A stretch of DNA of 64,000 nt from Acidobacteriota bacterium (GTDB taxonomy: Bacteria > Acidobacteriota > Blastocatellia > Pyrinomonadales > Pyrinomonadaceae), in contig JAHBSM010000002.1 in assembly GCA_019639115.1 (NCBI GenBank), positions 301,425-365,424 of the forward strand, given 5' to 3'. A model generated the notes under the pieces. That model worked only from the letters and a program-made list of their open reading frames with translations, was not told where the DNA came from and did not search any database. Both the position numbers and the translations under genes were made by a program. Within the stretch, counting starts at the first letter, position 1. Every line of letters starts with the position of its first letter. Of the stretch, positions 122-45,379 are shown in pieces.

Positions 122-260
122 AGTCATCCTCGCTTTTTAAGTTTTCATTGACGAACCCGGAAAAAGGCAACGGATACATCAATACTTTCACTCGCTCTGC
201 AAGGTTCGTGCCGTTCGTTGATCGGCATCGGTGGCACATCGGTTGCGAAGGGCGGGTGAT

Positions 261-13189: not shown

Positions 13190-15571
13190 TCAAGTCCGTT
13201 CGATTCCGGTCCTAATACCTCGACCAATCGTCACATCTTCCCTCTCGGGCCATCCTCCTTTTTCATGTGCAGTCGAATCTCGTTCTTCGCCAGACCCTGC
13301 TTTTGTTTTGAGCTTGACGACCGATACTAGAAGCTCCTTGAAGTTCGTTCCATCAATTCCGGCTAAGTGTTTGAGTAGCGAGTTCAGGTGCTTTGCTTCC
13401 CGGCTGCTCGATGTCATCGTGATGCGTTTCTCGATCTCAGTGATCTCGCTTGTTGTGAAGATAGGCTGGTAAGTGAGATCCGCAGCACTACCCAACAGGG
13501 ACAGTTGCTTAAACTCGGAAGCCTCTTTGGCCGCATTCAGCGACAGTTCTTTGGCGGCCGCCACGTCCGCTTTGAGACATCTCTCGCGATCCTTTGCTCG
13601 GTCTTCGATCTGGCGTCTTAAGGTTCGATGATCTTTGCTCTCTAACAGTAGATTCAGTGCTTGGTCAAGAATCGAGCTTTTTCGTGGTAGATCGACATCG
13701 TCGAGACTCAGATAACTCATCGAACCGTTCGATTTGTCCTCGAGCGCAAATCTGTGAAAACGCTTCGAGCTTCGGTAGAAAGCTAGGTCTTCTTTTGTCT
13801 TATTCAGTCCGATATTGCAAAGAATTTCTCTTGCCAATGCGCGGCCCACGATCGCGTGAGAAAGATTCCCGGCTTCGTCGGGGCCGATCTTTCCTTTGGC
13901 TCCATGTTGGCTGGGCACCGCCCCTTGAATCGATGTTCTTTGGAGATTCCAATTGGATGCGTATTCTTTGGGAAATTTGAGTTTTCTTGAGAGTGTGTCA
14001 ATTTCGATGATCTGATCGGCAGAAAACACTGGCTTCACTGTATGCAGGGTGCTGCTTCGATAAAGGACTTCACTCAGAGCCCCAACAATCTTTTGCTCCT
14101 GCCGCATCGATTTGTGCATTTGCAAGGATTGTTCACTCAGAGAACTATTGACCGAATCAAATAGAAAAACTTCCCTTGACTTGGAATTTCGGCTTGAGGG
14201 CTTGTTGGTCAGGTATTCGATTGCCGAGCGAATGCTTTGGAGAACAGAGCGACCATCGTTTTCGATATCATTTTGACGAGCTATCATCGCCAAAGAGACT
14301 GGATCGTTTCCAACCTTCACCTTTCGGTAATACGCGTTGTCTTTGAAGTCCGAGAGCTGCCGCTGATGTAGCTGCATCCTCATTTCAGAAACCGCTTTTT
14401 GTCCAGCGAGAAGTTCAAGATCAGAAACAGTTCTAGGTGCGATTTCTTTCTTGTTCTCAAGGTCGGTTCTAACCTGCTCAAGATAGCGAAATTCTCGCAC
14501 TTTCGTGTTTGCTAGACATTCGCTTTGAATTTCATCGAGTTCTTGCTTATTGAATGCCGGCGTCGGTACTTTTACTCCTCTTTTTCTGTAGTCGGTTCGG
14601 ATCTGATTTGCTTCACCACGAATAGATGCAGTTTCCTCTTTGAGTTTGAAGAATTCCGATTCTTCCCGGGCGAGTATGCTGTTGGTTATCGCTATGATCT
14701 GGCGTGATCGCGGTGTTTTGCTCCAGTCTTCTGAGTTGGTTGCTGATTGCCTTAGCTCTAAGAGCGAGACTCTTAGCGTTATTGCTTTCTCCGGATCCCT
14801 GATCGGAAACTTGAGGCTCTCACGATTTTCGATAAGAAAGGCAATTTTCTCTTCCTTAAATTTGAGTTGATATTCGGCAAGAATACCCCGTCGGAGGATC
14901 TCTCGTTCGCGAATATTTCCGTCGCCCTTTTGAAACTCAATGGCGTCATGTTTTTGTGGAGCATTTCGATTGTGCTGCTTGTCATTGGCATGTTCCCGCG
15001 AAGGTGTCCGTTCCGCAACGAGCTCCTGAAGTTTTTGCTTCGCGGATTCGATCAGAATACCGTCGACAATCCGTTTCTCTCCATCGATAATTTCAAAATG
15101 TGGAAGCGCCTCCCGCGGAATCTTGTTCAGCGATCTACCCTGAAGATCTTTGGTCAGATATTGCTTTTGAATTGCGATATGAACGTGAGGGTTTGCTGTG
15201 TTGCGATGAACGGCGCCTGCCCAGGCAAGCCGCTCGCTTTGGATACTCTTTTCTAGCTGTCCGATGGCAAATCTTGTGACGATTTTTACTTGCCGCTGGC
15301 GTTCCTCATCAGTCGAACCAAGTTGTTGAAAATCCTCCCGTCGAAACGAAAGAACAAGATGGTGAAGTTCGTTGTTTGAGGGACGGCCTTTGCCGCAATT
15401 GGATTTAAGAAAGTTGTTTGCGCTCCTTACCGTAAGATGATCGGTAAATTCGTTAAAAAGTTCACGACCTTTTTCGGGCTCTGCATTCCGGTCGATCTTA
15501 CTGTGCGCTAGATAATGAATGAGACCGCGAGAACTGCCTCTTTTTGATTGAACGCTGGCAATAACTCTCAT
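13190..15571 (-). CDS. Conjugative relaxase (MOB-family nickase)
   Basis: 793 aa. N-terminal relaxase-like block (LIHYLAHSK...) and histidine-triad-like motif HRNTANPHVHIAI. Start overlaps the upstream accessory-gene stop (TAATG). Confidence 0.75.
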   Translation of the reverse strand: MRVIASVQSKRGSSRGLIHYLAHSKIDRNAEPEKGRELFNEFTDHLTVRSANNFLKSNCGKGRPSNNELHHLVLSFRREDFQQLGSTDEERQRQVKIVTRFAIGQLEKSIQSERLAWAGAVHRNTANPHVHIAIQKQYLTKDLQGRSLNKIPREALPHFEIIDGEKRIVDGILIESAKQKLQELVAERTPSREHANDKQHNRNAPQKHDAIEFQKGDGNIREREILRRGILAEYQLKFKEEKIAFLIENRESLKFPIRDPEKAITLRVSLLELRQSATNSEDWSKTPRSRQIIAITNSILAREESEFFKLKEETASIRGEANQIRTDYRKRGVKVPTPAFNKQELDEIQSECLANTKVREFRYLEQVRTDLENKKEIAPRTVSDLELLAGQKAVSEMRMQLHQRQLSDFKDNAYYRKVKVGNDPVSLAMIARQNDIENDGRSVLQSIRSAIEYLTNKPSSRNSKSREVFLFDSVNSSLSEQSLQMHKSMRQEQKIVGALSEVLYRSSTLHTVKPVFSADQIIEIDTLSRKLKFPKEYASNWNLQRTSIQGAVPSQHGAKGKIGPDEAGNLSHAIVGRALAREILCNIGLNKTKEDLAFYRSSKRFHRFALEDKSNGSMSYLSLDDVDLPRKSSILDQALNLLLESKDHRTLRRQIEDRAKDRERCLKADVAAAKELSLNAAKEASEFKQLSLLGSAADLTYQPIFTTSEITEIEKRITMTSSSREAKHLNSLLKHLAGIDGTNFKELLVSVVKLKTKAGSGEERDSTAHEKGGWPEREDVTIGRGIRTGIERT

Positions 15572-16897: not shown

Positions 16898-17551
16898 CTA
16901 GGCGGAAAATGCAGAAGGAAGTGTTCCAATCCCATCGAAATTTGCAGCGGGAACGAACGACCGATGAGATGATTTGTATTGGGACAGAATCATTTCAAGC
17001 TTCAGCTCGAATTCGCGGATATCCAACCGATCTGAGCCGTGATACAGAAGCCTGCCCAATTGCTCCATATCAGCTTCTGAAACGTCACAGCGTATTCTTG
17101 CCGTAGCACGGGCTAGACGGTCGGCAACTTCCTGAAACTGCACTCCCGAATGTCCTTTTACCCACCGCCAGGAGACATGATGCCCGTAGCAGGCTTTGAC
17201 TAGACGCGACCAAAACGAGCGGTTTGCGCGCATGTGGTTTCGGCCCATCATCGTATCTATTACATATCTTGAGTCTGACACGATCTCTATACGACAATAT
17301 CTGCGAAGCTGCTCCAACGCATACGTGCATGCAAGGATCTCGGCCTGCTGATTGGTGATCTGTCCCAAATATTTTGAAACCAGTTTTACCTCCAGTCGGT
17401 TGTGATCAAGCATGACCACACCGCAGCCCGCCGACGAGTCGATCGAGCCGTTCCTAATGCATGATGCATCCGCGTAGATCGTCACAAGAGGCGCATATTC
17501 CGCCGTACTCTCTATCCCGCCATTATTCTCAACTAACTTGGTAACGCTCAT
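16898..17551 (-). CDS. RNase H (type 1) domain protein with a ~70-aa C-terminal extension
   Basis: DEDD-like pattern: IYADASC, QQAEILACTYAL, IVSDSRYVI, VKGHSG...EVADRLA. Confidence 0.75.
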   Translation of the reverse strand: MSVTKLVENNGGIESTAEYAPLVTIYADASCIRNGSIDSSAGCGVVMLDHNRLEVKLVSKYLGQITNQQAEILACTYALEQLRRYCRIEIVSDSRYVIDTMMGRNHMRANRSFWSRLVKACYGHHVSWRWVKGHSGVQFQEVADRLARATARIRCDVSEADMEQLGRLLYHGSDRLDIREFELKLEMILSQYKSSHRSFVPAANFDGIGTLPSAFSA

Positions 17552-17630
17552 TGTCCACCTCTCGTTTTTCTCTATAGGAAACTAGGGCACGGCACCGACG
17601 CTATGCCCCAGCTCGTAGAAACAACCTACC

Positions 17631-18074
17631 TCAGAACTGATCAATGAACGGCTCATTGACCGGTGCCTCTGGAACAGCCGTGCCCGTGAATTCGGGAACG
17701 TCCGGCTCGGGGCTGTCAGCAGTAGGTTCCTCGTCCGTTTGGCCGCCCGAACGGTTCGATCCGACAAACTCGAATGAGAAGAGCGAGATCTCGGCACCTG
17801 ATCTGGGCTCGCCCTTATCTGTGCTCCACGGGCTGAACGAGAGCCTGCCGTGAACAAGGAGATGCGTTCCCTTTTTTATATGCTCGGCAAGCGTCTCCGC
17901 AGTCTTGCCAAAGGCAACCACATTGAACCAATGTGTGACCTGCATGCGCCCTTCCGGGCCGTTCTTGAACGAGTTTGAAGCGATCGGAAAGCTCGCGACC
18001 GGGGTGCCCTTTTCCGAATATTTCAGGCTCGCATCGCGGCCCGCATTTCCAAGTATCGAGATATTTGCTGACAT
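17631..18074 (-). CDS. ssb: Single-stranded DNA-binding protein (paralogue 1)
   Basis: ORF 17631-18134; preferred start is the ATG at 18074 giving MSANISILGNAGRD..., parallel to SSB2. The OB-fold pattern includes WFNVVAFGKTAE and GRLSFSPW. C-terminus is ...VNEPFIDQF. Confidence 0.8.
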   Translation of the reverse strand: MSANISILGNAGRDASLKYSEKGTPVASFPIASNSFKNGPEGRMQVTHWFNVVAFGKTAETLAEHIKKGTHLLVHGRLSFSPWSTDKGEPRSGAEISLFSFEFVGSNRSGGQTDEEPTADSPEPDVPEFTGTAVPEAPVNEPFIDQF

Positions 18075-18209
18075 GGTTTTTTCTTGCTCCTTTTTTGGTT
18101 TATTTGTTCTCCGAACGGAACGGCGTTTCGCCATCTGCGAGAGTTTTTCAAGGCGTTCTGCCTAAAATACTGGCCGCCGCTCCTTTCGTTAAATATTGCT
18201 CTTCAATTT

Positions 18210-19895
18210 TCAGGCCGCATGCACGACCTTAACCTGTGTTCGCTGTACAGCAGGCTGCGTGAAGAGGCTCGCCTGGATCGTGCGATTCGAGCGAACGGTC
18301 TCGTTTAGTTCTGCATCTCGTGCCCTCACCGCGTCCCACAATTTCTGTTTCTCCTGCCGCTTGAATGCCCTCGCGGCCGGGTCGTTATAGAGACCGAATT
18401 TTAGAAAACGTAGCTGTCCAAGAGTCGCCGTTTCGATCTTTCGGAGCCATCGTTTCGCGTCGATTGAAAGTTGATTCTTCAACCTAACTTCCTGAGATTT
18501 TGCGACGGTGTTGAGCGCCGTGAACTCCTTAAGGGAAAGCTTCTTTTGATCCTTAAAATCCGCGTATGCTTTCTTCTTCAGATCTGCTACTTCGGCCGTA
18601 TCGGTCGTGCCTCGGATCGCAAGATAAGTCTCTTGATAGGCATCGTGGCGAAGGCTTCGCAGATGAAAATCGGCGTATTGACGCTGCCACAAAAGACGCA
18701 GGACAGAAGCCGCGTACTGCATCTCTTCAAAGTCAGGATTGATCTCCTGATCGACAAGAATCTCGATACTGCTGCCTTTACCGAATGAATATATACGGCG
18801 TGCTGAACGAATCGCTTTGCCCTCATAGATTCGATCGAGTGAAAGTGCCATCCATTCCTCGAACTCATGATCCGAGAACGGATGTCTCGAAGGCATCGCC
18901 CATCCAGCACAGTTGATTGTCCGGCGTCCTTCCTGAACGGCATTGCCGCCTAAAGTGTGGCCGACAAATAGCTTCGGCAGTTGTGAGGAAAGCTCTCTGG
19001 ATTCATGCGGAAGACAATTCGCATCGATCTCACAATCGAGGTCAAAGACAACCACCGAACGCTGGCTTGAACTCATTGTTATGCCGATAAGACCATTCTC
19101 ATCAAACTGCTCAAGTTGATCGAAAGTCGTGAAGTCTCTGTCGAGTTCTTCGACTGATTTATCGCCGTCTTCCAGATAGAATTCCGCAAAATCATCGAAC
19201 ATCATACGGCTTACTTTTTGCCGACCGACTCGCTTCATAACAGCACTCATCTCATCGTCGAAGTTTGGGCATTTTGGCGGCAGCGGCCTGCGATTCTTAG
19301 CAACTTCCTGAACCCTGCGTTGGTCAGCAACACAAAGTTTTTGTTCTCTTGTTCGAGATTCCTCGAAGCTGATCTCTCGATCTGCCGAAGTCGCCGTAAC
19401 AGCTTCTAACTGCATGCCGAGCAGTCCCATTTCGTGGAGAACCTCGCCAACACCTCGTCGCCTAATCTCACCGTAGTAGTAGGCTGCGATCTGTTCGAAT
19501 TCATACTGCCCGGCGTCCGGGCTCGCGATTGCTTTTACGCATCTGACGAACTCTTTGGCATCGGTCTCGTCGGACAAAACCTTCATTGCATATTCGAGCG
19601 ACATTATCCGCACGCGGTCCAACGCTTCCGGTTCAATTTCGTCGGCGATTCGAACGACAACATCGCCCAAGATCGAGTACTCTTCAAGCTCTCTTCGTCG
19701 CAACGGATGCGATGAAAGATGCGCACACCAGTCCTGCATCGGCGAACCGGTATTGACCGGCATGAACGCCAGCATCGGGTTGTTCGGAGCGTGCTTTCTG
19801 AGCTGTTCAATATTGATTCTTTCTGCCATAACTTCCTCTCTTGATCGGCCTGATGCCGAATCGAAAACGCGTAAATTTAAGGGCCGCATTTTCAA
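18210..19895 (-). CDS. Hypothetical 561-aa protein (orphan, leading-region-like position)
   Basis: Long uninterrupted ORF co-oriented with its neighbours; I recognise no motif. Confidence 0.6.
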   Translation of the reverse strand: MKMRPLNLRVFDSASGRSREEVMAERINIEQLRKHAPNNPMLAFMPVNTGSPMQDWCAHLSSHPLRRRELEEYSILGDVVVRIADEIEPEALDRVRIMSLEYAMKVLSDETDAKEFVRCVKAIASPDAGQYEFEQIAAYYYGEIRRRGVGEVLHEMGLLGMQLEAVTATSADREISFEESRTREQKLCVADQRRVQEVAKNRRPLPPKCPNFDDEMSAVMKRVGRQKVSRMMFDDFAEFYLEDGDKSVEELDRDFTTFDQLEQFDENGLIGITMSSSQRSVVVFDLDCEIDANCLPHESRELSSQLPKLFVGHTLGGNAVQEGRRTINCAGWAMPSRHPFSDHEFEEWMALSLDRIYEGKAIRSARRIYSFGKGSSIEILVDQEINPDFEEMQYAASVLRLLWQRQYADFHLRSLRHDAYQETYLAIRGTTDTAEVADLKKKAYADFKDQKKLSLKEFTALNTVAKSQEVRLKNQLSIDAKRWLRKIETATLGQLRFLKFGLYNDPAARAFKRQEKQKLWDAVRARDAELNETVRSNRTIQASLFTQPAVQRTQVKVVHAA

Positions 19896-19983
19896 AACCC
19901 TGAATTAAAAGCACTTTCATTCAGGCTTGAAAATCCCTCTCAAGGTGCAGGAGAAGTGTGTTAGGAGAAACGAGATCGGTCGA

Positions 19984-20373
19984 CTATAAGGAAAGTTCTG
20001 CTAGTCGCTTTTCAAGATAAGCGAAGGTAAGCGGTGCTCGGTTTTGGAGTTGAGCCCGGCCGGTTCCAAGGCCATTTGCGGGAATGACGATAGTCTGTTC
20101 AGGAGTGGTACTTATACATGACAAACGATCAAAGGCATCATCGATCGCCGCCTTATTCTGTTCGAATTCTACGTCTGTAAAGAAGGCTTCTTTGCGATTG
20201 CTGGGGAGTTTCTTGGTCGGTATCCCAACTACATTCGGTTCGCCTCTCATCGCAGCCGCTTGTCCGCCAAGACCACGCCGGATAAGGTTGTCGCCAAACA
20301 GAAAGATGTGATCGCGATGCTCTCTTACGAACGCTCGGGTGATCCACATCATTCTTACGATTCGATATCGCAT
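19984..20373 (-). CDS. Small conserved-looking hypothetical protein (~130 aa)
   Basis: ORF 19984-20577, but its first 68 codons are Arg/Cys-rich and overlap the SSB2 3' end. Preferred start is M69 (20373). Motifs IFLFGDNLIRRGLGGQAAAMRGEPNVVGIPTKK and IVIPANGLGTGRAQL suggest a small nucleotide/ligand-binding fold; the family is not assignable by eye. Confidence 0.5.
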   Translation of the reverse strand: MRYRIVRMMWITRAFVREHRDHIFLFGDNLIRRGLGGQAAAMRGEPNVVGIPTKKLPSNRKEAFFTDVEFEQNKAAIDDAFDRLSCISTTPEQTIVIPANGLGTGRAQLQNRAPLTFAYLEKRLAELSL

Positions 20374-20452
20374 GGCAGGTTCCCATCTGCAAAAGAACTG
20401 CCGCCTGAAGAAAGTTCTCTCCAAGCGGCAGATAGACCTGAGTCGAATTGGA

Positions 20453-20854
20453 TTAGTAAGCTGCGGCCTGCTGAAGTTCAACCGGTGCGGTTTGTGCCGT
20501 CTGCATTGCGGCTCCGTCTCCTTCCTCATCGCGGCGGCCCGACAGGAACTGGAACTCCTGCAGGACGATCTCCGCACCAGCTTGCGGCGAATCGCTCTGA
20601 TCTACCCACGGGTTAAAGGTCAAACGGCCCTGGACATACAAACGGCTGCCCTTGCGAACGTATCGTGCAAGCGTCTCTGCCTGCTTACCGAATGCGGTCA
20701 CGCGGAACCAGTCGGTCTTCTCAACGCGTCCCTCCGCGCTGTTTCGGAACGAGTTCGAGGCCATTGAAAAGCTCGCCACGAGGGTGCCGTTATCCGTGAT
20801 CTTAGTTTCCGGTGTCTTGCCGAGATTGCCGATGATCGAAATATTTGCTGACAT
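20453..20854 (-). CDS. ssb: Single-stranded DNA-binding protein (paralogue 2, no acidic tip)
   Basis: 133 aa starting MSANISIIGNLGKT..., with WFRVTAFGKQAE and GRLTFNPW. AGGAG upstream. C-terminus ...PVELQQAAAY lacks the canonical D-D-D-I-P-F-type tail. Confidence 0.8.
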   Translation of the reverse strand: MSANISIIGNLGKTPETKITDNGTLVASFSMASNSFRNSAEGRVEKTDWFRVTAFGKQAETLARYVRKGSRLYVQGRLTFNPWVDQSDSPQAGAEIVLQEFQFLSGRRDEEGDGAAMQTAQTAPVELQQAAAY

Positions 20855-21123
20855 TTTCTTAATTCTCCTGTGTGATTAAATTTCCGAGGTTCACGATTAG
20901 TGAAGCCTTAAAACCTTCTCTGAAGGCACATCTTATCTGCAGCTGGTTATTTGTTTTGTTAATCGTGATGGGTGGAAACGAAAGGACCTTTGTGAATCGC
21001 GGTAGCGTCCTATCGGCCGGAAGGCAGTAGCTGTCGACCGGATTATCGGTCTTGTAGGGATAATTCGTTCTCGAGATGAAATCCAAGGGCGAGATTTCAA
21101 TGATGCCCCCCTCCCAAGACAAA

Positions 21124-22650
21124 TTAAATATAGTACTTGAAGGCAAGCGGGGGTGCCTTAATGTCCGCACTTGCAGTTAAGATTTCCCCAATCTTGTCGG
21201 CAAAACGCAGAGTTACAGGCATGCCATCTGCGAACTGACAGGAGTTATAGTTCAGCTTTGTCAACGCCATGATATCCGAGAGAACTTGCTTGATATCGGC
21301 TGATCCCTTATTTATCTCAACGAAGAGAGGGTTAGGAACTTCCATTGACATTGCGGTTTGCGTTTTGGGGGCGTATCCGACAGTCCAAAGAAATGCGCTT
21401 TTGTCGTCGATAAGGTAAGCGAGACCTCTCATTACCGGATAATCCCCAGTTTGTCTGTATAACTTCAATGGTTTGGACCGCGACATCGATACGCCAACTA
21501 GATTGACGCCAGAAGGAGCAGCCTGTTGGAACGCTTCCCATTCCTCCCTATTGAAGCGCGTTTTAGCGTGTATGAATACCTCTTCCGGATTTTGTCCATT
21601 ATTTTGCTCGCGATAAGATTCGATGGCCTGGATTAACAGAGACTTAGCCTCCTTCGGATCTAAATGAAACTCTTCTCTTTCAGGATTCCACCACTCACCT
21701 ATCTCACCTTTAAAGACCGTCCCGTCGCCATTATCCAAGAACATTTGAGCAGCACAACAAGCATTTTTCGGGTTCTTGCTTTTCTCTAGTTGCTTGTAGA
21801 CAAGTCCCAAATAACATACTCCGCTCCGTATATCTGATAGCTTCCATGGCTTCCCTCCCGCCTTATAAAAGACGCCCGTCGAAAACGTCCATGCTAAATG
21901 CCCTTCGATTTTTGAGAAGTCACGAATCGGGACACCCCGACCGTTCGTAAACTCTCGCCAAGCAAGTGTACTTTCGCGAACGATCTGCGTTGGAATTGTG
22001 TGGCTGAGGAGCCTAGCCTTTAATTGGTCATGGAACTGGGCATCAAAAGTGTAAGCGAGAGCTTCCTCTTCTTTTGCTCGATTATCCTCGTCCAGCTGGG
22101 AAAAGAGACTTGGTGCAAATCGAAAACTCTTTGCCTGAGCCTTTGAGATAGTTCGCTTTGTCTGAACAAGATATTTCGGCAACGTTTGATTCGGACGACA
22201 AAACTTGTAAATCTCGTCTGGAACGACTACGAACCAAACATCGACAGTCTCATCGGTATTCTTATTCGCTGTAACAATTTTTTCTAAGAACAAGGAGACA
22301 AGGTCATAGGTTCGTTTATGAGTATTCTCGTTATAGAGAAAATGATCGATCTCTTCTTTCCGAACTTCTTGATAATACATATTATTGGATTCCCATTTGC
22401 AATTAAATACGGCTTCAAACCCAGGAAACATTGGCCGGGTTACGTTGTTCGCATTATATGTTGGCTTTTGCAATCCATCGACAAAGTCTCTGAAAATTTG
22501 CAGGCCTCGCTGAGTCGCGACAACACCGCTACGAATACCATATATTTTGTTTACTGGGCCGTACATCGCCAATCCATCCCTCACGTCCGTACATTTCTGG
22601 TCGTAAGCAAATAAAAGGTTCGGTTCGGGAATATAAATAAGTGGTTTCAT
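21124..22650 (-). CDS. Short prokaryotic Argonaute (MID-PIWI only, predicted catalytically inactive)
   Basis: 508 aa, too short for N/PAZ domains. MID-pocket-like H207-x3-K211 (FHDQLK), TQIVRE and YKAGGKPWKL. PIWI region has YLGLVY and IHAKTRF where active Agos carry G-x-D and R-D-G. ATGA overlap with the upstream TIR-APAZ gene. Confidence 0.85.
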   Translation of the reverse strand: MKPLIYIPEPNLLFAYDQKCTDVRDGLAMYGPVNKIYGIRSGVVATQRGLQIFRDFVDGLQKPTYNANNVTRPMFPGFEAVFNCKWESNNMYYQEVRKEEIDHFLYNENTHKRTYDLVSLFLEKIVTANKNTDETVDVWFVVVPDEIYKFCRPNQTLPKYLVQTKRTISKAQAKSFRFAPSLFSQLDEDNRAKEEEALAYTFDAQFHDQLKARLLSHTIPTQIVRESTLAWREFTNGRGVPIRDFSKIEGHLAWTFSTGVFYKAGGKPWKLSDIRSGVCYLGLVYKQLEKSKNPKNACCAAQMFLDNGDGTVFKGEIGEWWNPEREEFHLDPKEAKSLLIQAIESYREQNNGQNPEEVFIHAKTRFNREEWEAFQQAAPSGVNLVGVSMSRSKPLKLYRQTGDYPVMRGLAYLIDDKSAFLWTVGYAPKTQTAMSMEVPNPLFVEINKGSADIKQVLSDIMALTKLNYNSCQFADGMPVTLRFADKIGEILTASADIKAPPLAFKYYI

Positions 22651-24005
22651 TCGGGTTCTGGAATATCATCTAGGGCATTGTCAATCTCCTCAACGGTTCC
22701 TATGTTTGAAATCTCGACTTCCTCGGACAACGTGTTCTTTATGGGTTTCTTATAAGTTGCAGGTGCGACGAAAGTTACAGGCTCGGTTCCGACAACGATT
22801 TGTTCTTCGCTCCCTACGTTAAACTTCAATTCGCTCGAATTTGTTCCGAGATAGCCAATAAGAGCCATAAGAAGTCGGCGCCATTTTCCATTCCACCAGT
22901 TCTTACCAAGTCGTCGTCTTGCGGAGTGTTGCGTGGCATCAGACTCTATGAGGTCTATTCCATTAGTTGTGAAGAAAATGTGAGATGAGAAGACGAAAAC
23001 GGGAAATGGATAAAGCTTCGCTGAGGGCGAAACACCGTAATGCCATGTATTCTCGTGATCTTTTCCAAGTAACTGTACTTTATTGAACTTATCCCGTTCT
23101 AAAGTGTCCTTTTCAATCCAGTATGCTAGGCGATTTGACATCTCGTAATCGCGGAAACCTGCTTCAACCATAAATCGAGCAGAAGCTTGGTTAAGTAAAT
23201 CGACGACAAGTCTCTTACATTCACTGGGACGAATAAAATTCGTCTCTTTAATGGTACCCGTAAGAATATCAGTCATGGGAATTCTGACGCTCCAACTGCT
23301 AAGGTAAGTACTCGTTTCCGGAAATTCATCAATAAAATCATATTCCCACGCGAACGTAGCAAGATATTTACCGTATCTGGCAGTTGGATATTTAATCCCC
23401 GGCGAATTACGATTTTCAATTACGCGGCGTGGAAACTCATGAAAGCGTAACTCCTCAGGAAATGAAATGATCGGGAACCAATTGGATTGGTAAACTTCTT
23501 CTTCGGCAATAGCTCCCTTGTCGTGTAAAAATATTTGCTGGTATAGCAAGGAAGTTAGTTCGGGATTTGGACTACTGCACGGAACCTCTTGCTTTTCCAG
23601 AGCTTCTAGCAGGTCCCTTAATCCAGCGGCCCAAGAAGTCCTAAAATTTACAGCATTTAGTCTAACGGCCTCGATATTAATATCGTCGAACGAAAGATTT
23701 TGATCAATCATCAGCGGGATGATAAACGCATCGTCATCCAACACCTTCTTAACCTTCTCGGCTACCGCAAGTTCTTTCAGGACTCCTTCCCTTCGATTCG
23801 AGAAGACGGATAAAACGGGCAAGACTTTTATGCTATTCTCACGTATTTCCCTTTCAATGGCTGCCCAATGATCAACCCCCTTGTCTAAGAATTTAAGATC
23901 GCACCAAACCTCATAGCCTAATGCGATAAGTTTCAACGTGATCCATTTGGTGAATTCATTGTCGATTACCGTATCGCCATGGCTAATGAATAGGGTTTTT
24001 CTCAT
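22647..24005 (-). CDS. TIR-APAZ protein (SPARTA NADase effector subunit)
   Basis: 452 aa. N-terminal TIR-like region: LFISHGD, LGYEVWCDLKFLDKGVDHW, IEREIRENS, GVLKELAVAEKVKK (conserved Glu at residue 78). The C-terminal ~300 aa (NWFPIISFPEELRFHEF...GKNWWNGKWR...) matches my recollection of APAZ regions of characterised SPARTA proteins. Confidence 0.85.
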   Translation of the reverse strand: MRKTLFISHGDTVIDNEFTKWITLKLIALGYEVWCDLKFLDKGVDHWAAIEREIRENSIKVLPVLSVFSNRREGVLKELAVAEKVKKVLDDDAFIIPLMIDQNLSFDDINIEAVRLNAVNFRTSWAAGLRDLLEALEKQEVPCSSPNPELTSLLYQQIFLHDKGAIAEEEVYQSNWFPIISFPEELRFHEFPRRVIENRNSPGIKYPTARYGKYLATFAWEYDFIDEFPETSTYLSSWSVRIPMTDILTGTIKETNFIRPSECKRLVVDLLNQASARFMVEAGFRDYEMSNRLAYWIEKDTLERDKFNKVQLLGKDHENTWHYGVSPSAKLYPFPVFVFSSHIFFTTNGIDLIESDATQHSARRRLGKNWWNGKWRRLLMALIGYLGTNSSELKFNVGSEEQIVVGTEPVTFVAPATYKKPIKNTLSEEVEISNIGTVEEIDNALDDIPEPE

Positions 24006-24142
24006 CTTTTAGGTTTTGATTATAGCCAAATTGCGACCAGGAAGCAGGTCGAACAAATCGGACAGATCAAAATCAAATTGGAGAGCATCATCGCAGTGCA
24101 CCGACCATCGAGACAGGTTTACAAATGCATGGTTCAAAATAG

Positions 24143-24346
24143 TCATTTTGGTGCAAAAATAAACCAATGCTGGATGATTAATGCTCCAATACAATTAGCA
24201 ATACGTTTCAACGTCCTCATCAATCCGGAATGACCGATTCCTAGTTGCGGAGCCGCCCTTGTTCGATTGCTATTGATCGCGAGGGCATTTCTGAGAAAAT
24301 CTTGTTGTATTCCCTCAAAATACAATCCCATCCGATCGCCGGGCAT
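24143..24346 (-). CDS. Mini-ORF with a Fis/NtrC-type HTH_8 motif (small regulator or gene remnant)
   Basis: 67 aa. FEGIQQDFLRNALAINSNRTRAAPQLGIGHSGLMRTLKRI resembles the C-terminal HTH of Fis/sigma54 activators (AL..t.GN...AA..LGI.r.tL.rKLk). An in-frame stop lies 7 codons upstream of the ATG and no AAA+ part is present. Confidence 0.3.
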   Translation of the reverse strand: MPGDRMGLYFEGIQQDFLRNALAINSNRTRAAPQLGIGHSGLMRTLKRIANCIGALIIQHWFIFAPK

Positions 24347-24659: not shown

Positions 24660-25352
24660 GTGGATAACCCGATCCTTTCCAAGTTGCAAACCTCACCAGG
24701 CGATCCGCCGAGTGGGTCAGATAGCGCGCTTGATCGGGAGGGCTTTTTTGCAGAATCGTTAAAGCTGATTCGCAAAGTAATCGCTGGTCGTCGATCCGTT
24801 ATGGCCGATGACGTGCCGGATATTTCGCAAGAGGCTGCGTTAAGGCTTTGGAGGTGGCGCTCGAAGTTTGAAGATAAAAGCTCGCAAATGGCAGAAGGCG
24901 ATTGGAAGTCTTTTGTCGCTCGTACTGCTCACAACGAAGTAAATCGCAACCTCTCAAATCGGAACAAAAAGATCGAGACCTCTCTCGATGAAACCGAGGC
25001 GCTCGGTGACGAGGTAAATGCTTCGTCCGCAGAGACTTTTGTTTTGGTCAAAACGGTTTGGCAAGGTATTTGCAGGCTGAGTCTTTACCAACGGCAATCG
25101 CTTATTTTCAGTTCAGTGGATCTCGTACTTTATCTTTTCCAGTTTGGAATCGAAGAGGATGACCTGTTAGCAGAGCTAGAACTGACGAAGGAGTCTTGGG
25201 AAAGGATTTCAACACGTATGCCTCTAACCGATATCGAAATAGCTGAGATAGCAAACCCGAATTCGGCCAATGGCCAAAGAGTGGCAACCGCAGGCGCGGT
25301 TAAGAAGGCGAGATTTGACGCTCGCAAGAGACTTAAGGAGTTGATGAAATAA
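24660..25352 (+). CDS. Sigma-70 family (ECF-like) RNA polymerase sigma factor
   Basis: 230 aa, GTG start. Region-2-like ISQEAALRLWRW...ARTAHNEVNR. Region-4-like LSLYQRQSLIF and C-terminal EIAEIAN...AVKKARFDARKRLKELM. Confidence 0.6.
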   Translation: MDNPILSKLQTSPGDPPSGSDSALDREGFFAESLKLIRKVIAGRRSVMADDVPDISQEAALRLWRWRSKFEDKSSQMAEGDWKSFVARTAHNEVNRNLSNRNKKIETSLDETEALGDEVNASSAETFVLVKTVWQGICRLSLYQRQSLIFSSVDLVLYLFQFGIEEDDLLAELELTKESWERISTRMPLTDIEIAEIANPNSANGQRVATAGAVKKARFDARKRLKELMK

Positions 25353-26261
25353 ATGAATCAAGATCACTTATCAGCTGCTGAGGTCGCCATGTTTCGGGAA
25401 GACAGTTTTTCTTACCGATCGATCGAGATCGGCCGCCATCTCCTCGCCTGCAAAGAATGTCGAGCAAAATTACCATCGGTAACGCCGCAAGAGTTCCGGG
25501 AATGTGTTCTCGGTGCCAACGGGGAGGGCCTGGATGAATCTGAATACAAGTACCGATTTTTCGATTTTCCAATATTGTCCTTTGCGAGGGTAACGGCATT
25601 TGCAGGATTCGCAATTCTGCTTCTGGCGGGAATCTATTTTGTTGGTGTTCAAAAGTTTACTACGTCGAATACTGTTGCAAAAAGCGAGAATAACGCAGTC
25701 ACGAATGAGCTGAATCCAGTTCCGGACAGCGTTGCCAATCAGGCAAATCACGAGAAGGAACAGTTACCGATAAAGAGTTTGGACGTGCCCAGTAGAGATT
25801 CGAGACCAAAGCTTCCCTTGACAAAAACCGACCAAAGGAAAAAGGCAGGCGTTACTGCAAGTGGGCCGAAGTTGCAGAACGCCGAAACTCGCGGAAGCGA
25901 AAACCCTTGCTCGCGCGGGGCCACGATCAGTCTTGAATCCAAAGCCGATGGGAAAGAGGTCTTTCTTAAATGGAATTCTGTCAAAGGGGCAGAGTCCTAC
26001 GACATTTATATTTCTGACCTCGATGAGAACATGATCGATCATTTCGAGTCTAAATCTCAAACACATTACCGTTCTGCGGTGAGGCTTGATCCGGCAAAGT
26101 CCTATCGCTGGAAGCTGATCATTACGCTAAAGAACGGCAAAAAGATCGTTGGCCCGCCCCAAATTCTTACTTCGGGAACGTCCACGGAAGACAACATAGA
26201 ATCCGGAGCCATGGAAAGACAACGAGGGTCGTTTGAACTGAGGTGTGTGGTATCAAAATGA
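25353..26261 (+). CDS. Anti-sigma factor (zf-HC2) with TM helix and extracytoplasmic FN3-like domain
   Basis: Starts directly after the sigma stop. H-x3-C-x2-C motif HLLACKECRAKL, TM VTAFAGFAILLLAGIYFVGV, and a C-terminal beta-rich segment (VFLKWNSVKGAESYDIYISD...YRWKLI). Confidence 0.6.
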   Translation: MNQDHLSAAEVAMFREDSFSYRSIEIGRHLLACKECRAKLPSVTPQEFRECVLGANGEGLDESEYKYRFFDFPILSFARVTAFAGFAILLLAGIYFVGVQKFTTSNTVAKSENNAVTNELNPVPDSVANQANHEKEQLPIKSLDVPSRDSRPKLPLTKTDQRKKAGVTASGPKLQNAETRGSENPCSRGATISLESKADGKEVFLKWNSVKGAESYDIYISDLDENMIDHFESKSQTHYRSAVRLDPAKSYRWKLIITLKNGKKIVGPPQILTSGTSTEDNIESGAMERQRGSFELRCVVSK

Positions 26262-28183
26262 ACAGAATAAATCACTACCAAATAAAGTTTCGGTCGCTGG
26301 CGGTTGTCCTCTTTTGCTTGCTCGTCTCAGTCCACGGGCAGCAGTCTGACGATCTTCCAGTGCCAGCTAGCTTCCGATTAGAGGGTGTTCCGCGCATCAA
26401 GAATCAAGATGTCAAGCACCTTTTCTTTGAACCATCTGCGATAAAGAGCAATTTGATCTGGGACGTCGATCGAACCGCTCGCAAATTACTTGTCACCGAT
26501 GAAAAGAACGCCATCTACTCTGTGGATTCTCCCTTGGCCACGCCAAAGTTGGCGCTGGACGGAAGGGTGCCAAGCACTCTTCGGGTAAATCCAACTTCGT
26601 CGGTCGTTGCCTTCAACAATGACAAGGAAGATCCCGACAATTACGCCCTTTTCCTTTGGGACGGAAAATCGGAGGCTCGAAAGCTAACGCGTTTTGACGG
26701 TAAAGACGATTCAATCGATTCGTTTGTCTGGGATCGGAATGGAAAGAGTATCTATTACACCCTGAACGACTACGAGGCAAAAACGACAAAGATCTGCCAA
26801 AGCGATCTCACAGCGAGCAAGTGCTTCGCGGTGGAGCTCAAGGGACTATGGAATGTAATTGACAACGACCAAGGCAACATTCTGCTTAAGTACTGGAAAT
26901 CTTCGAGCAACCAGCACATCTACCTATACTCGATAGGAAGCGGGAAACTCACACCTCTCTCCGAATCAGGAAATGCAACAAAGGCATTTTTCTTGGACGG
27001 AAGGCCACTCGCGTTAAGCGAAGACTCGCCAGAATGTGGTGGAGGTCGGTGCTTAATTTCGGTTAATCCGCGAACGGGAACGAAGGAGATTATAAGCCTA
27101 AAAGAAGTTCGCGGACATCTGGGGGACATAAAACCCTCGCCGGATGGGAAATCGTTACTGATTCAAGAAGCGTTCGATGGAATCGACAGTCTATGGATCG
27201 GAAAACTGAAGAGCGAAAGCATTGTACCGGTAGTTCCAAACTTTCTTAGCGGTTCGTACGTTGTTTGGAACACCCGTTGGCTTTCAAGTAGCGAGGTTGT
27301 TTTCACTGTAGAGAATATCGGTCAACCCGCTTTTGTAAAGTCGTTCGACTTGAAGACGAAAAAAACAACAGTTTGGACAAAACCCCGACTTCCAGAGGTC
27401 CTTACGGGGACGGTAAGCCCTCCAGAGAAGATACGCTGGAGATCCTCAGATAGTAAGGAGATTTCGGGATATATTGTAAAACCCGCCAAGATCGAGAAGA
27501 AAAGCCCCGTGCTTGTGTTTATCCATGGTGGGCCTCAAGTCATTGACCGTCCCACATTTAGTTCTCTCGATGTCCGGTTTGCGACGTTTCTCGGATTGTC
27601 AATTATCCACACCAACATCCGAGGGTCGAGAGGATTTGGAAACGACTTCATGGACGCTGACAACGGGGCCAAAAGAGAGGACGCTGTTCGAGATATTAGC
27701 TCGCTTCTCGATTGGATCGAGAAGCAGCCAGACCTCGATGCGGATAACGTATTCATCCGTGGCGAAAGCTACGGCGGGTTTGTCGCTCTAGCGACGGGGC
27801 TCAAGGAATCTTCCCGAATCCGGGCTGTCATCGCCGAATATCCGCTCGTGTCGATCAGGAATTATCTGCAGCAGAGTTGGATCGATGAATTTGCAAAGAA
27901 TGAATATGGCGATCCAAAAGACGAAATCTTAATGAAAAAGCTTGATGAGCTTTCTCCGCTGAACAATGCTTCGAAATGGAAAGGAACGCCGTTGTTCTTG
28001 ACCAGGGGAAAACTCGACTCAAGGGTCCCAGAAGGGGACGTTCTTGGTCTCAAATCTCAACTTCGAGATGCAGGGGCCGATGTGTGGTTCATATTTGCCA
28101 ATGAGGCGGGACATGGCGTCTCAGGACGCTTCGTCACAGCGGCTATGTATGAATTTATTAAGACTCACCTAAGGAGGAAATGA
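26258..28183 (+). CDS. S9 family serine peptidase (prolyl oligopeptidase / dipeptidyl aminopeptidase-like), secreted
   Basis: ORF 26243-28183; preferred ATG 26258 (ATGA overlap with the anti-sigma stop). Signal peptide, beta-propeller-like N-terminal half, and a C-terminal alpha/beta hydrolase with VFIHGGPQ, nucleophile elbow GESYGG, GKLDSRVP (Asp) and EAGHG (His). Confidence 0.8.
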   Translation: MNRINHYQIKFRSLAVVLFCLLVSVHGQQSDDLPVPASFRLEGVPRIKNQDVKHLFFEPSAIKSNLIWDVDRTARKLLVTDEKNAIYSVDSPLATPKLALDGRVPSTLRVNPTSSVVAFNNDKEDPDNYALFLWDGKSEARKLTRFDGKDDSIDSFVWDRNGKSIYYTLNDYEAKTTKICQSDLTASKCFAVELKGLWNVIDNDQGNILLKYWKSSSNQHIYLYSIGSGKLTPLSESGNATKAFFLDGRPLALSEDSPECGGGRCLISVNPRTGTKEIISLKEVRGHLGDIKPSPDGKSLLIQEAFDGIDSLWIGKLKSESIVPVVPNFLSGSYVVWNTRWLSSSEVVFTVENIGQPAFVKSFDLKTKKTTVWTKPRLPEVLTGTVSPPEKIRWRSSDSKEISGYIVKPAKIEKKSPVLVFIHGGPQVIDRPTFSSLDVRFATFLGLSIIHTNIRGSRGFGNDFMDADNGAKREDAVRDISSLLDWIEKQPDLDADNVFIRGESYGGFVALATGLKESSRIRAVIAEYPLVSIRNYLQQSWIDEFAKNEYGDPKDEILMKKLDELSPLNNASKWKGTPLFLTRGKLDSRVPEGDVLGLKSQLRDAGADVWFIFANEAGHGVSGRFVTAAMYEFIKTHLRRK

Positions 28184-28184
28184 A

Positions 28185-28418
28185 ATGAAACGAACTAAAG
28201 CACTTCTCTTGGCGTTGACCATGACAACTTTGTTGACTGGCAACATTTTCGCGACAGGCGGGGCATTGCCAGCGGCCAACAGTATCGTCACCTATGCGTT
28301 GACGGCTCTGCTCTCGCTCGCTGGCGGCAATGATCAATGTCCCCTGCGGCAATGTACGACCTGTAGACCAAATAATGAGGGTGGTGACAACGGTGATTGT
28401 CGACCTACACCGGACTAG
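28185..28418 (+). CDS. Small exported Cys-rich peptide
   Basis: 77 aa, starting 2 nt after the S9 stop. Signal peptide MKRTKALLLALTMTTLLTGNIFA, a second hydrophobic stretch, then CPLRQCTTCRPNNEGGDNGDCRP (4 Cys). Confidence 0.45.
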   Translation: MKRTKALLLALTMTTLLTGNIFATGGALPAANSIVTYALTALLSLAGGNDQCPLRQCTTCRPNNEGGDNGDCRPTPD

Positions 28419-28429
28419 GAGTAATGTTG

Positions 28430-30974
28430 ATGAGAAACAAACCGAACATGTGGGCTAATGCGAAAAGGTCGATTCTGGTCGTCTTCGCATTAGTTCTCAT
28501 GTCGGAAATATCTCTGAGCCAATCCGGCTCGCAAACTATATCTAGTCTGTATTCTAGAGGTTATTTTGATGAAGTAGCCCGAATTGCACCCGCACAGATT
28601 TCAAGATTCTCTCAATCCGGACGGGTCGCAGAGGCGTCTGATCTGGCCGTCTTAACTTGTCGGACTTTCATACAACTAGGGCGGCTTGACGAAGCTGCTC
28701 AAATCGTTGAGCGATTCATTTCTGATTCCAGCTTACGAACTCGCTCGCCTGGATCTGTCGCTTCTCTTTACCTCTGTAAGGCAGGAGTTTCTCGCTCGAA
28801 GCGCGATTCTGGAGCGGTCCTCGAAAACCTGCGACTAGCTCATTCATTATCGGCAAATGACTCGAAAACACTCGCTGCTTACCAATTGGAAGTTGGTCGC
28901 ACTCTATATTCAGCAGGACATGACTTTGCAGCGATCGTGTGGTTAGAGAATGCGGAGAGAGAGGCCTTGGCGAACGGCCAGACTTCGATCTACTATGACG
29001 CACTTCGATTTCTGAGCTTAGCTTGGACTGCGAAATTCTATTATGCCAATGCACTTTCGTACGCGGAAAAATTAGTTACAAAATCCTCGATCGGAGAGTA
29101 CGAACATAGAAGTAGGATCGCCCATCTTGAGCTCGCAAGCCTCCTCGATCTTACTGGCCAGCCGCGACGATCGAAGGACCTATATCTCAAAGGCCTTGCC
29201 CTTTCGACTCGAGCTAAAGTGAACTATCACGCCGGACAGTTCCTTTCCAGTCTCTTGCTTCGATCGTTATACGAAAATGATTCCGAGTCCGCGAGAAGCT
29301 ACTTAGCCAGGTTGGAGACTATCGATAAAGAAAAGCAATTCAGCTTTGAGCGTCTTTTAGGTAGAGCCTTGGTTGAGAACTTCAACGGAAACCGTACCCT
29401 TTCAGACGAGTACTTCTCAAAACTGGCAAACGAAAAAGGCACATCCGATTACGTAGTGCCCTATTGGAAAGGCACGATTGCTGAGAAAGAGCAGAACTGG
29501 AAGGAACTTATCGCCAATGCTCACCATCTCCGCAAATTGACCGAAGACGAGAATTTTCAAGATGATCTCCCGCGAATCTATTACAAACTCGCTTTGGGTT
29601 CGTGGCGACTAGGCGAAGAGAAATCCGCGAGAGAATATGCGGCAAAAGCACTCTCATTGTTCGAGCCATTTAGAAACGCAACGACAGTGGATCTTTCGAT
29701 TGCAATGATGGAAGCCCACCATTCCGTTTATCGGCTACTCAGCGAGATTCACGTGACCAGCGATTCCACGAAAGCCTTTGAATATTCTGAGCTACTCAAA
29801 GCGAATCTGCTCAGGGACAGGATTGAAAGGTCCATGCTGAAGCCTCGTCCAGATCTATCCGATCCTATTCGGAACCAACTTCTCACGACTTCTCGTAACT
29901 ATATTGACGGAAAGGAAAATCAAGCGGCTCTAATGAAGCTTGAAAATGGCATCGTAGCCGATAAGCAAACAGCGAGGCTGCAAACTCAGGATTTCTCGAC
30001 GCAGGATTTAAAACTTCCGAAAGACGTGACGATCGTTTCCTACGAATTCACGCCGTCCGGTCAGCTCCTCGCATTTGTTCTCGAATCAGGAAAACCGCTA
30101 CGTGCGGTTAAGCTTACCGTTAACGAAGAGCGGGTGGTAAACCTCGCCTCAGAAACCCAGTCTAAGATGAAGGATCGCATTTTCTTCAAAATCGATGGGA
30201 AAAAAATCTACGATCTATTGTTGAAACCGTTGGACTTGAACTCAAGTCACATAGTTATCGTCCCCGACAAACAATTGTGGAGAATACCATTCCATGCCCT
30301 AAGCCCAGACGGTAATAAATATTTGATCGAGACGAAAACGGTTTCGTATTCGCCGTCTGTCTATTTGCTAAAGCAACAACTCCTATATGAACCGCCAAAT
30401 AGAAAAACTATACAGATCTTTGCGAATGATACCTTCAACCGTCAAAAACTTGGCTACGTGAACAGCGAGGCGGTGAGTATCGGAAAGTTGTTCGGAGCCT
30501 CACCTCGGCTGAATGCCTCCCAAGTCGGCAGCGGAAACGGATATCCTTCATTTCGCTATGCACGCCCAACTCGATAGCGATAATCCTCTATCTTCTTTTC
30601 TTGCCTTTCAGCAAAATTCCACGGACTCTGGCAGACTGACCGTCAGCGATCTCCTATCGGTCCGCCTCAAGCCGAACAACTTAGCATTCCTCGCATCCTG
30701 CGACACGAGTAAGGTGCATAGCGGCGAAGGGCTGGTTAGTATTCCATGGGCAATGATGGGAGCTGGGAGCTCATCGGTAGTATCGTCGCAGTGGGAAGCA
30801 AGCGATCGTGCAACCCAAAAATTCAGTGGAATTTTCTACCGAGAACTTTTTAAAGGGTCATCGACGGCGTCGTCACTTCAAGCTGCAGCATTCGAATTGA
30901 TTAACGACAAGTCATCAGGATTTCACGAACCTTATTTCTGGGGAGCTTTCACACTCCTTGGAGACTTTAGATAG
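28430..30974 (+). pseudogene. TPR-CHAT protease-like gene, split by a frameshift near 30520-30535
   Basis: ORF 28397-30577 (signal/TM, long TPR-like helical repeats, start of the CHAT domain IVIVPDKQLWRIPFHAL) ends prematurely. ORF 30513-30974 in the +1 frame continues with the CHAT catalytic context ILHFAMHAQ (His) and LAFLASCDTS (Cys). The AGGAG position favours a start at 28424/28430. Confidence 0.7.
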
Positions 30975-34231: not shown

Positions 34232-34233
34232 AT

Positions 34234-45124: not shown

Positions 45125-45379
45125 TTAGTAATTCGCTAACCAGGCATCCACCTCAGTTCTGTTAAAAGTTGGCCGTCCCACTCCGTGAAACGGAAGGCCA
45201 TTTTTTCGCATCCATCGATTTATCGTTGCTCCCGATTTCTTCAAATACTTCGCAACTTCGGACTTCGTCATGATCTGCGGCGGCTGAGATGAATGTATAG
45301 CTTTTTCGATGGCCCCCGCGACGGAGGTGTCGATCAAGCGAATCAGCTCTTCTTTTTCTATCGTGATAATTTCAACCAT
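45125..45379 (-). CDS. xis: Excisionase-family HTH DNA-binding protein
   Basis: 84 aa. MTKSEVAKYLKKSGATINRWMRKNGLPFH matches the excisionase/MerR-superfamily HTH pattern. Lies 3 nt upstream of int. Confidence 0.7.
   Translation of the reverse strand: MVEIITIEKEELIRLIDTSVAGAIEKAIHSSQPPQIMTKSEVAKYLKKSGATINRWMRKNGLPFHGVGRPTFNRTEVDAWLANY

Follow-up and report, generated by a model that had tools for sequence, protein, structure and literature searches.

The window analysed here comprises 64,000 nucleotides of contig JAHBSM010000002.1 (NCBI GenBank assembly GCA_019639115.1, positions 301,425 to 365,424) and contains, on its minus strand, a two-gene operon encoding a TIR-APAZ protein and a short prokaryotic Argonaute (pAgo). 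The locus is very probably an intact SPARTA (short prokaryotic Argonaute, TIR-APAZ) system of clade S2A that an integrative and conjugative element (ICE) carries as exchangeable defence cargo in an Acidobacteriota (Pyrinomonadaceae) genome. The comparisons described below support true orthology of the gene pair to characterised members of SPARTA, within short pAgo clade S2A. At the level of sequence the match is far beyond chance, and all the defining features of SPARTA that can be tested at that level were found. A first-pass annotation of the same DNA had proposed a functional SPARTA; its identification is upheld by orthology, by the conservation of catalytic, guide-binding and oligomerisation residues and by purifying selection, and function is predicted from sequence alone.

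The TIR-APAZ and short Argonaute gene pair

The operon was compared with the systems of Maribacter polysiphoniae (MapSPARTA; PDB 8FEX and others), of a Bacillales bacterium (BabSPARTA; PDB 8QLO/8QLP) and with the third solved SPARTA (PDB 8IFK series). The features of the gene pair, in window coordinates, are as follows.

22647-24005, minus strand: TIR-APAZ gene, 452 amino acids (aa), with an N-terminal TIR domain (predicted NADase), a linker, APAZ and an acidic C-terminal tail (open reading frame (ORF) call, phmmer, PADLOC)
21124-22650, minus strand: short pAgo gene, 508 aa, MID and predicted inactive PIWI (ORF call, alignment to MapAgo, PADLOC)
22647-22650, minus strand: ATGA stop/start overlap of the TIR-APAZ and Ago genes
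23607-23990, minus strand: TIR domain core, aa 6-133 (Pfam TIR_2, 8.2e-11, 42.9 bits, cutoff 28)
23772-23774, minus strand: Glu78 codon, equivalent to catalytic Glu77 of Map, Crt and Bab TIR-APAZ (residue mapping)
22650-22754, minus strand: TIR-APAZ C-terminal tail, residues 418-452 (residue mapping and published tail role)
21862-22032, minus strand: MID 5'-phosphate pocket region, with H207, K211, Q222, R225, T228, H251, Y262 and K263 (residue conservation)
21127-21843, minus strand: PIWI domain without the slicer tetrad, with V284, H329, K363 and D485 at its positions (hhalign against TtAgo)

The minus strand at the gene junction reads cccgaATGAaacc, in which the TGA stop of the TIR-APAZ gene and the ATG start of the Ago gene share positions 22647-22650, confirming the overlap reported in the first pass; because stop and start lie within one ATGA, the two genes are predicted to be translationally coupled. 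The gene order is that of SPARTA, the TIR-APAZ gene preceding the short pAgo gene on one strand with the ATGA overlap, and MapSPARTA likewise has this two-gene order with overlapping genes. The lengths are also close, at 452 and 508 aa here and 452 (8fex_A chain) and 507 aa (MapAgo) in MapSPARTA. Residues 1-508 of the Ago protein align to residues 1-507 of MapAgo, consistent with a MID and PIWI architecture without N or PAZ domains.

Homology searches of both proteins against PDB chains were carried out using phmmer and returned full-length matches to the solved SPARTA complexes, with E-values of 1.5e-162 (8qlo_A), 2.1e-162 (8ifk_A) and 5e-160 (8fex_A) for TIR-APAZ and of 8e-264 (8fex_B) and 1e-263 (8qlo_B) for Ago. 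Long pAgos such as CbAgo matched residues ~257-489 of Ago only, with E-values of ~1e-9. Counted identities were 70.7% to 8fex_B (MapAgo) and 70.5% to 8qlo_B (BabAgo) for the Ago protein, and ~54% to both 8qlo_A and 8ifk_A for TIR-APAZ. Chain 8fex_B was taken as MapAgo because it is residue-for-residue identical to the Maribacter polysiphoniae protein (P0056). In PADLOC, TIR-APAZ was matched over residues 1-432 by Aga_TIR-PNTD1-PNTD2 (3.3e-124) and Ago by pAgo_I, the pAgo class I model (4.5e-193). The reading of the 452-aa protein as a TIR domain fused to an APAZ-like region is thus supported by Pfam TIR_2 (8.2e-11), by the PADLOC model and by the full-length PDB alignment. The Sir2-APAZ-pAgo fusion model of PADLOC matched Ago at 3.7e-34 only and the TIR-APAZ models were the best, in agreement with a TIR effector and no Sir2, DREN-type nuclease or HNH. 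SPARSA, SPARDA and SPARHA share with the present system the short MID-PIWI Argonaute, the APAZ partner and the abortive-infection logic, but carry Sir2, DREN-type nuclease or HNH effectors instead of TIR.

Residues named in the structure-function papers on BabSPARTA and MapSPARTA (PMC10899771, PMC10355822, PMC11156904, PMC9097488) were mapped one by one onto the two proteins. Nearly all of the functionally mapped residues that were checked are kept, including all those at which mutation impairs MapSPARTA, and nearly all of the residues named for BabSPARTA are identical here. Relative to 8qlo_A and 8ifk_A, TIR-APAZ carries a one-residue insertion near residue 11, by which the catalytic E77, whose substitution in E77A abolishes NADase activity (PMC9097488), becomes E78; the motif GVLKELAVA, singled out in the first pass, begins at residue 74 and places its Glu at this position, so that the alignment to the characterised pairs scores E78 as E77. 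Also conserved in TIR-APAZ are the BB loop residues D40/K41/W46 (D41/K42/W47 here), the tetramer-interface arginines R54 and R114 (R55 and R115), N174 (N175), the hinge P147 (P148) and R362/K366 (R364/K368). The C-terminal tail (residues 418-452) contains 29% Asp/Glu, inside the range of 21-45% published together with the role of the tail (PMC10899771).

In the Ago protein, the 5'-phosphate pocket residues H207, K211, Q222 and K263 are all identical, as are the RNA-specific contacts R225 and T228 (for the roles of the MID-pocket residues see PMC10355822, PMC11156904). The first-pass description of a 508-aa MID-PIWI protein with H207, K211 and Q222, and with YKAGGKPWKL starting at residue 262, therefore proved accurate throughout. 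H251, K396, the cleft arginines R72 and R243 and the C-terminal Ile are conserved, and so are the dimer-interface residues Y37, N131, D133, D137, Y262 and K505/Y506; mutational data on the dimerisation and tetramerisation residues are given in PMC10899771. The likeness to MapSPARTA accordingly covers the catalytic Glu, the BB loop, the equivalents of R54 and R114, the MID pocket, the pAgo dimer interface and the acidic tail. Changes were found in the BB loop (A43 to V44, F45 to H46), in the tail relative to Bab (N423 to T425, in addition to two contacts considered below) and in the dimer-interface loop of Ago (E132 to T, K135 to T). K135 makes a salt bridge specific to BabSPARTA, and position 135 is Asn in MapAgo. 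Relative to MapAgo, the Ago protein also has a one-residue insertion near residue 349. Judged from the residue mapping, the differences from BabSPARTA and MapSPARTA are minor.

The slicer tetrad was examined using TtAgo, whose sequence was taken from plasmid pTT27 and aligned by hhalign with a 15-sequence short-pAgo alignment. The TtAgo tetrad, which we take to be D478/E512/D546/D660, does coincide with D/E/D/D at residues 478/512/546/660 of that sequence. These four residues pair with V284/H329/K363/D485 of the present protein (hhalign probability 54%, E-value 1.3e-4), with G-L-V284 opposite G-F-D478 and A-K363-T opposite R-D546-G of TtAgo. Positions 1 and 3 agree with the earlier motif correspondence (G-L-V for G-x-D, A-K-T for R-D-G), and the placement of YLGLVY (from residue 280) and IHAKTRF (from residue 360) at these positions is thus borne out by the profile alignment. 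As aligned, the PIWI domain is without the DEDX catalytic tetrad, and it is predicted to be unable to cut because three of the four tetrad positions are lost. Absence of the tetrad is common to all short pAgos (PMC9097488).

Proposed mechanism, selection and points against

By analogy with the characterised orthologues, we infer the complex formation, guide type, NADase activity and phenotype of this SPARTA. The coupled genes would yield a 1:1 TIR-APAZ/pAgo heterodimer with the acidic tail lying in the nucleic-acid cleft, and the MID pocket (H207/K211/Q222/K263 with Mg2+) would bind small, transcript-derived guide RNAs by their 5'-phosphate. Once such a guide has paired with complementary single-stranded DNA (ssDNA) of an invader, in the typical case a multicopy plasmid that is strongly transcribed, the tail and the PIWI sensor loop would be displaced, permitting pAgo-pAgo dimerisation and next TIR-driven tetramerisation. 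One TIR domain would then contribute its BB loop to complete the active site that surrounds Glu78 in a second one; NAD(P)+ would be hydrolysed, and death or growth arrest of the cell would remove the invader from the population.

Both genes appear to be maintained by strong purifying selection, as judged from the ratio of non-synonymous to synonymous substitution (dN/dS) against a sibling allele on a metagenome contig (L029) with protein identities of 95.4% for TIR-APAZ and 97.6% for Ago, the ratios being 0.074 and 0.046, respectively, at a synonymous divergence (dS) of ~0.22-0.27. The corresponding dN/dS values against a 78% identical relative (L027) were discarded as uninformative, synonymous sites being saturated. 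The exact Ago protein was found on at least 23 contigs from many samples (NCBI, ENA, JGI and Logan assemblies), and the locus also occurs in the Acidobacteriota / Pyrinomonadaceae metagenome-assembled genomes (MAGs), namely in GCA_026129825.1 and on a contig of 3.1 Mb from ERZ2606016. In the NCBI records, Ago is labelled 'hypothetical protein' and its partner 'TIR domain-containing protein' only. Calls of a 429-aa TIR-APAZ in some contigs were not accepted as N-terminal truncations: their DNA does not differ from that of the window, and the gene caller had picked an internal TTG.

Several observations weigh against an intact SPARTA at work in this host. The Pfam Piwi profile gave no match to Ago even at E<=1, and the partner gave TIR_2 only; NCBIfam yielded nothing meaningful for either protein. 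In view of the overwhelming matches in PDB and PADLOC, these blanks were attributed to limited sensitivity of the profiles, and a check by Pfam only would falsely have looked like a refutation. Of the TIR and Piwi profile searches suggested in the first pass, the TIR part thus came out positive in Pfam (8.2e-11) and the Piwi part failed there, the pAgo_I model of PADLOC matching instead (4.5e-193). The confidence of the TtAgo alignment is moderate only. Two positions of the Ago sensor loop are changed relative to BabSPARTA (K325/H326 to R/E), the loop sequence also differs from that of MapSPARTA, and two acidic contact residues of the TIR-APAZ tail are unlike those of BabSPARTA (D432 to N434, D435 to T437). 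A scan for promoters and terminators around the operon gave nothing above shuffled expectation, and a consensus scan, which may be ill suited to Acidobacteriota, detected no sigma-70-like promoter upstream of TIR-APAZ. Finally, a TIR-APAZ allele in a metagenome assembly of 5.5x coverage (L030:3583-4941), which differs from the intact L029 allele by 3 nt only, carries a TCG to TAG stop at codon 275 (S275). The stop could reflect either genuine loss of function or an error of sequencing; a fraction of the population may accordingly have lost the system or bear a cost from it.

The probable conjugative element and its variable cargo slot

The SPARTA operon occupies a slot whose content varies among sibling elements. 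The slot and its surroundings comprise the following features.

21039-24146, no strand assigned: variable ICE cargo slot with the SPARTA cassette, ~3.1 kb, GC content 0.439 against 0.48-0.49 in the backbone
20453-20854, minus strand: gene for a single-stranded DNA-binding protein (SSB), the backbone flank of the slot (Pfam SSB, 2.7e-28); the identical protein flanks three cargo variants
24143-24346, minus strand: 67-aa ORF with a Fis-type helix-turn-helix (HTH)-like motif, directly upstream of TIR-APAZ

The slot junctions were mapped by blastn and MAFFT against two sibling elements (L022, L024). Flank homology, at ~88-92% nucleotide identity, ends at 21038 on the SSB side and at 24147 or 24371 on the other side. 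Between the SSB gene and a conserved 230-aa gene, contigs with the identical SSB protein (loci L021-L025) hold three different contents, namely SPARTA, an MmeI-type Type IIG restriction-modification (RM) system (PADLOC, 1.6e-272) with a DEAD-box helicase and a T5orf172 protein, or a candidate system composed of HTH_8, LexA-like, DUF2188 (PDC-S16) and PDC-M48B (1.6e-165) proteins. The slot is a defence-cargo hotspot, in which SPARTA is interchangeable with other defence systems. The 67-aa ORF corresponds to the 5' portion of an HTH_8 gene of 118 aa in L024, itself a weak HTH_8 match, with homology ending at 24147; it looks like a remnant of cargo exchange or is possibly a small regulator.

The GC content at third codon positions (GC3) of the SPARTA genes is 0.43-0.46, against 0.605 for the chromosomal CysS gene. 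The nearest relative outside the cluster that lies on a long contig (P0033, 78% identical) belongs to another island, one that lacks conjugation genes and in which it is surrounded by a DNA methylase, Vsr, a UvrD-PDDEXK helicase-nuclease, ParE, a resolvase and RHS proteins. The few close relatives with a source name are mostly from Bacteroidota, the rest being Ignavibacteria and Acidobacteriota MAGs. Taken together, the polymorphic slot, this separate island and the mixed phyla of the relatives indicate that the cassette moves between contexts and phyla. MapSPARTA itself belongs to Bacteroidota, as opposed to Acidobacteriota here, and differs also in that the present system sits in an ICE cargo slot.

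Beside the slot lies a conserved plus-strand gene group (window 24660-30974) without a PADLOC match, consisting of genes for the 230-aa protein, a 302-aa protein, an S9 peptidase, a 77-aa ORF (called in related contigs) and a CHAT protease. Inspection by eye showed, at the N-terminus of the 302-aa protein, an H-x3-C-x2-C motif similar to the zinc finger of anti-sigma factors, and the group could be a regulatory or defence module. The CHAT protease gene (28397-30974) is split into overlapping ORFs of 726 and 153 aa here and in GCA_026129825.1 and is intact (852-854 aa) in three other loci (L002, L003, L005); the split is a frameshift or an assembly error. On the other side, directly downstream of SPARTA and on the same strand (16898-20854, minus), the backbone encodes two SSB paralogues, DUF7831, a 561-aa protein without a family match and RNase H, which presumably process ssDNA and RNA:DNA hybrids for transfer.

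The features that support a conjugative host element and mark its site of integration are listed below.

231-1040, plus strand: SLT lytic transglycosylase of the transfer region (Pfam SLT, 2.5e-20)
6538-8556, plus strand: type IV coupling protein of the VirD4/TraG family (Pfam T4SS-DNA_transf 3.7e-33, TrwB_AAD_bind 4e-22, TraG-D_C 8.6e-19)
13190-15571, minus strand: MobL-type relaxase (Pfam MobL, 9.8e-13, 48.3 bits, cutoff 28.5)
44060-45121, minus strand: tyrosine integrase (Pfam Phage_integrase, 1.5e-20)
45125-45379, minus strand: HTH_17 excisionase-like gene (gene call and PF12728 match in L011/L012, transferred to window coordinates)
45648-45724, minus strand: tRNA-Pro(GGG), the integration site, with the element at the 3' end of the tRNA (ARAGORN)

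To the right of ~45.7 kb the sequence is chromosomal (GC content 0.539), with AIR synthase-family, CysS and DsbD genes. Leftward from the tRNA-Pro gene, whose 3' end faces left, follow the HTH_17 gene, the integrase, QatABCD and a Type I RM system with an embedded GmrSD gene, and further left the CHAT / S9-peptidase group, SPARTA, SSB, DUF7831, the second SSB, RNase H, a ribbon-helix-helix (RHH) protein and the MobL relaxase. The leftmost part of the window contains AbiEi/AbiEii, the VirD4-type coupling protein, an AAA_5 ATPase and the SLT transglycosylase, and just left of the window are a 953-aa P-loop_TraG (VirB4-like) ATPase (28.1 bits, cutoff 25.8), more unnamed ORFs of the transfer region and a mer operon. 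The remaining transfer ORFs gave sub-threshold matches only (TraM, VirB5-like type IV secretion system, DUF4141), and most of the mating-pair proteins are too divergent to name.

These findings support the prediction of an ICE that measures ~53 kb or more. The location on a conjugative element claimed in the first pass is supported by the integrase, the excisionase-like gene, the tRNA-Pro site, the MobL relaxase, the coupling protein, the SLT transglycosylase and the VirB4-like ATPase; the left end and att repeat were not located, no second copy of the tRNA-Pro 3' segment being present in the window, in the 8 kb leftward of it or in the other retrieved loci. A look-up based on CysS recovered no empty site; each site was occupied, or its contig broke off at the tRNA. 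Two contigs (L013, L014) begin inside the tRNA gene, at window positions 45667 and 45696, and such breaks of metagenome contigs would be expected at a polymorphic or repeated att site. The element recurs in many samples. An apparent disruption of the coupling-protein gene in L008 was dismissed as a gene-calling difference, the DNA being identical to the window.

Further defence genes were observed on the element. QatABCD is complete and lies beside the integrase (39180-43997), with the KAP NTPase QatA (5.3e-104), QatB, QatC (2.1e-95) and the TatD-like QatD (1.6e-63). It is followed by the Type I RM operon hsdM/hsdS/hsdR (31158-39139), in which the GmrSD-family (DUF262/DUF1524) gene lies between hsdS and hsdR. 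The AbiEi/AbiEii type IV toxin-antitoxin (abortive infection) pair (9125-10749) adjoins the coupling protein gene, and between it and the relaxase is an ORF of 761 aa (10791-13076, minus strand) that gave a sub-threshold DUF488-N3a match and no PADLOC match and is kept in all sibling elements. Mercury-resistance genes (MerR, MerT-HMA and CopZ-like, L010:1-1156) lie ~7-8 kb left of the window start, beyond the VirB4-like ATPase; as the left end of the element was not found, they may be part of it.

Carriage of short pAgos on conjugative elements is not new, such systems having been reported on ICEs of Elizabethkingia anophelis (PMC13019914), likewise as a short pAgo with a partner gene, which form cargo inside the transfer region or next to it. 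In a tblastn search, short pAgo homologues (<=41.5% identity to the Ago described here) were found on 90 PLSDB plasmids, of which 46 are predicted to be conjugative; phage records gave no match. In one of these, plasmid NZ_CP117472.1 of Sphingobium sp. YC-XJ3, overlapping genes for a 519-aa TIR-domain protein and a 506-aa short pAgo (41.5% identical; L033, 255157-258233) are likewise conjugative-element cargo, flanked by traG/trbB on one side and by the relaxase gene rlxS on the other; this pAgo carries only the label hypothetical protein. In comparison with the Elizabethkingia and Sphingobium cases, the slot described here is demonstrably polymorphic among near-identical elements.

Alternative readings and significance

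An alternative that is possible, though doubtful, is that the SPARTA is biochemically active but has been selected to serve the ICE, by killing or arresting cells that gain rival plasmids or ICEs or by stabilising the element, as in the inter-element conflict suggested in the first pass. Its position within the ICE, between backbone genes, would fit this, as would the response of characterised SPARTA to multicopy plasmids with little protection from phages (PMC9097488), the distribution of homologues over plasmids (90, with 46 predicted conjugative) and phage records (none), and the Sphingobium pair between traG and the relaxase gene. However, the sibling slots hold generic defence cargo (Type IIG RM, PDC-M48), the ICE also carries Qat, Type I RM with GmrSD and AbiE, this cargo pattern is equally compatible with ordinary hitch-hiking of defence islands, and the closest relative outside the ICE (78% identity) resides in a chromosomal island without conjugation genes. 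Use of SPARTA by the ICE against competing plasmids would be compatible with the published biology of the family and is not distinguished from such hitch-hiking. A further extension of this idea starts from the trigger itself, in that SPARTA responds to guide RNA:ssDNA and an ICE makes ssDNA in rolling-circle replication and transfer, so that an ICE-borne SPARTA would have to avoid self-activation. The system might be shielded from the ssDNA of its own element, perhaps by the adjacent SSBs, DUF7831 and RNase H, while excluding rival plasmids. This was considered unlikely because the SSB and RNase H backbone genes are also present in siblings without SPARTA; if true, it would represent an undescribed functional coupling of conjugative DNA processing with Argonaute immunity.

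Marginally less likely still is that the operon is a recently acquired passenger, silent or decaying, which looks intact and is unexpressed or inactive in its host. The base composition of the cassette (0.439, against 0.48-0.49 in the ICE backbone and 0.539 in the chromosome), its GC3 of 0.43-0.46 against 0.605 for CysS, the want of a promoter-like site upstream in the consensus scan (which may not suit Acidobacteriota), the nonsense allele in L030 and the split of the neighbouring CHAT gene in this assembly could all be so explained. Yet both SPARTA ORFs are full length with all key residues present, dN/dS is 0.05-0.07 over a dS of ~0.22-0.27 inside the ICE lineage, and the identical Ago protein is found on at least 23 contigs from many samples. 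TIR domains elsewhere make cyclic ADP-ribose (ADPR) isomers or serve as scaffolds (PMC10899771), and the TIR domain could accordingly be a signal-generating enzyme, as in Thoeris, or a scaffold, instead of an NAD(P)+-depleting effector. The architecture is, however, that of the SPARTA TIR-APAZ proteins, at ~54% identity, and characterised SPARTA yields ADPR(P) and nicotinamide and depletes NAD; the residues of the tetrameric composite active site are conserved and the cassette contains no downstream gene for a signal receptor, which makes this the most improbable of the readings.

As an intact SPARTA carried as exchangeable cargo, the locus adds a member to a well-studied family and no new biology; the gain lies mainly in annotation and ecology, and the current understanding of SPARTA is unchanged. 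Pipelines based on Pfam or on NCBI names could overlook SPARTA in Acidobacteriota, because Pfam misses the PIWI domain and the NCBI names are uninformative. The finding places a system of the MapSPARTA type, whose named close relatives are mostly from Bacteroidota, on a conjugative element in another phylum. Near-identical ICEs whose only difference is what a single slot contains (SPARTA, Type IIG RM or PDC-M48) offer a natural comparison of the benefit of each cargo to the element.

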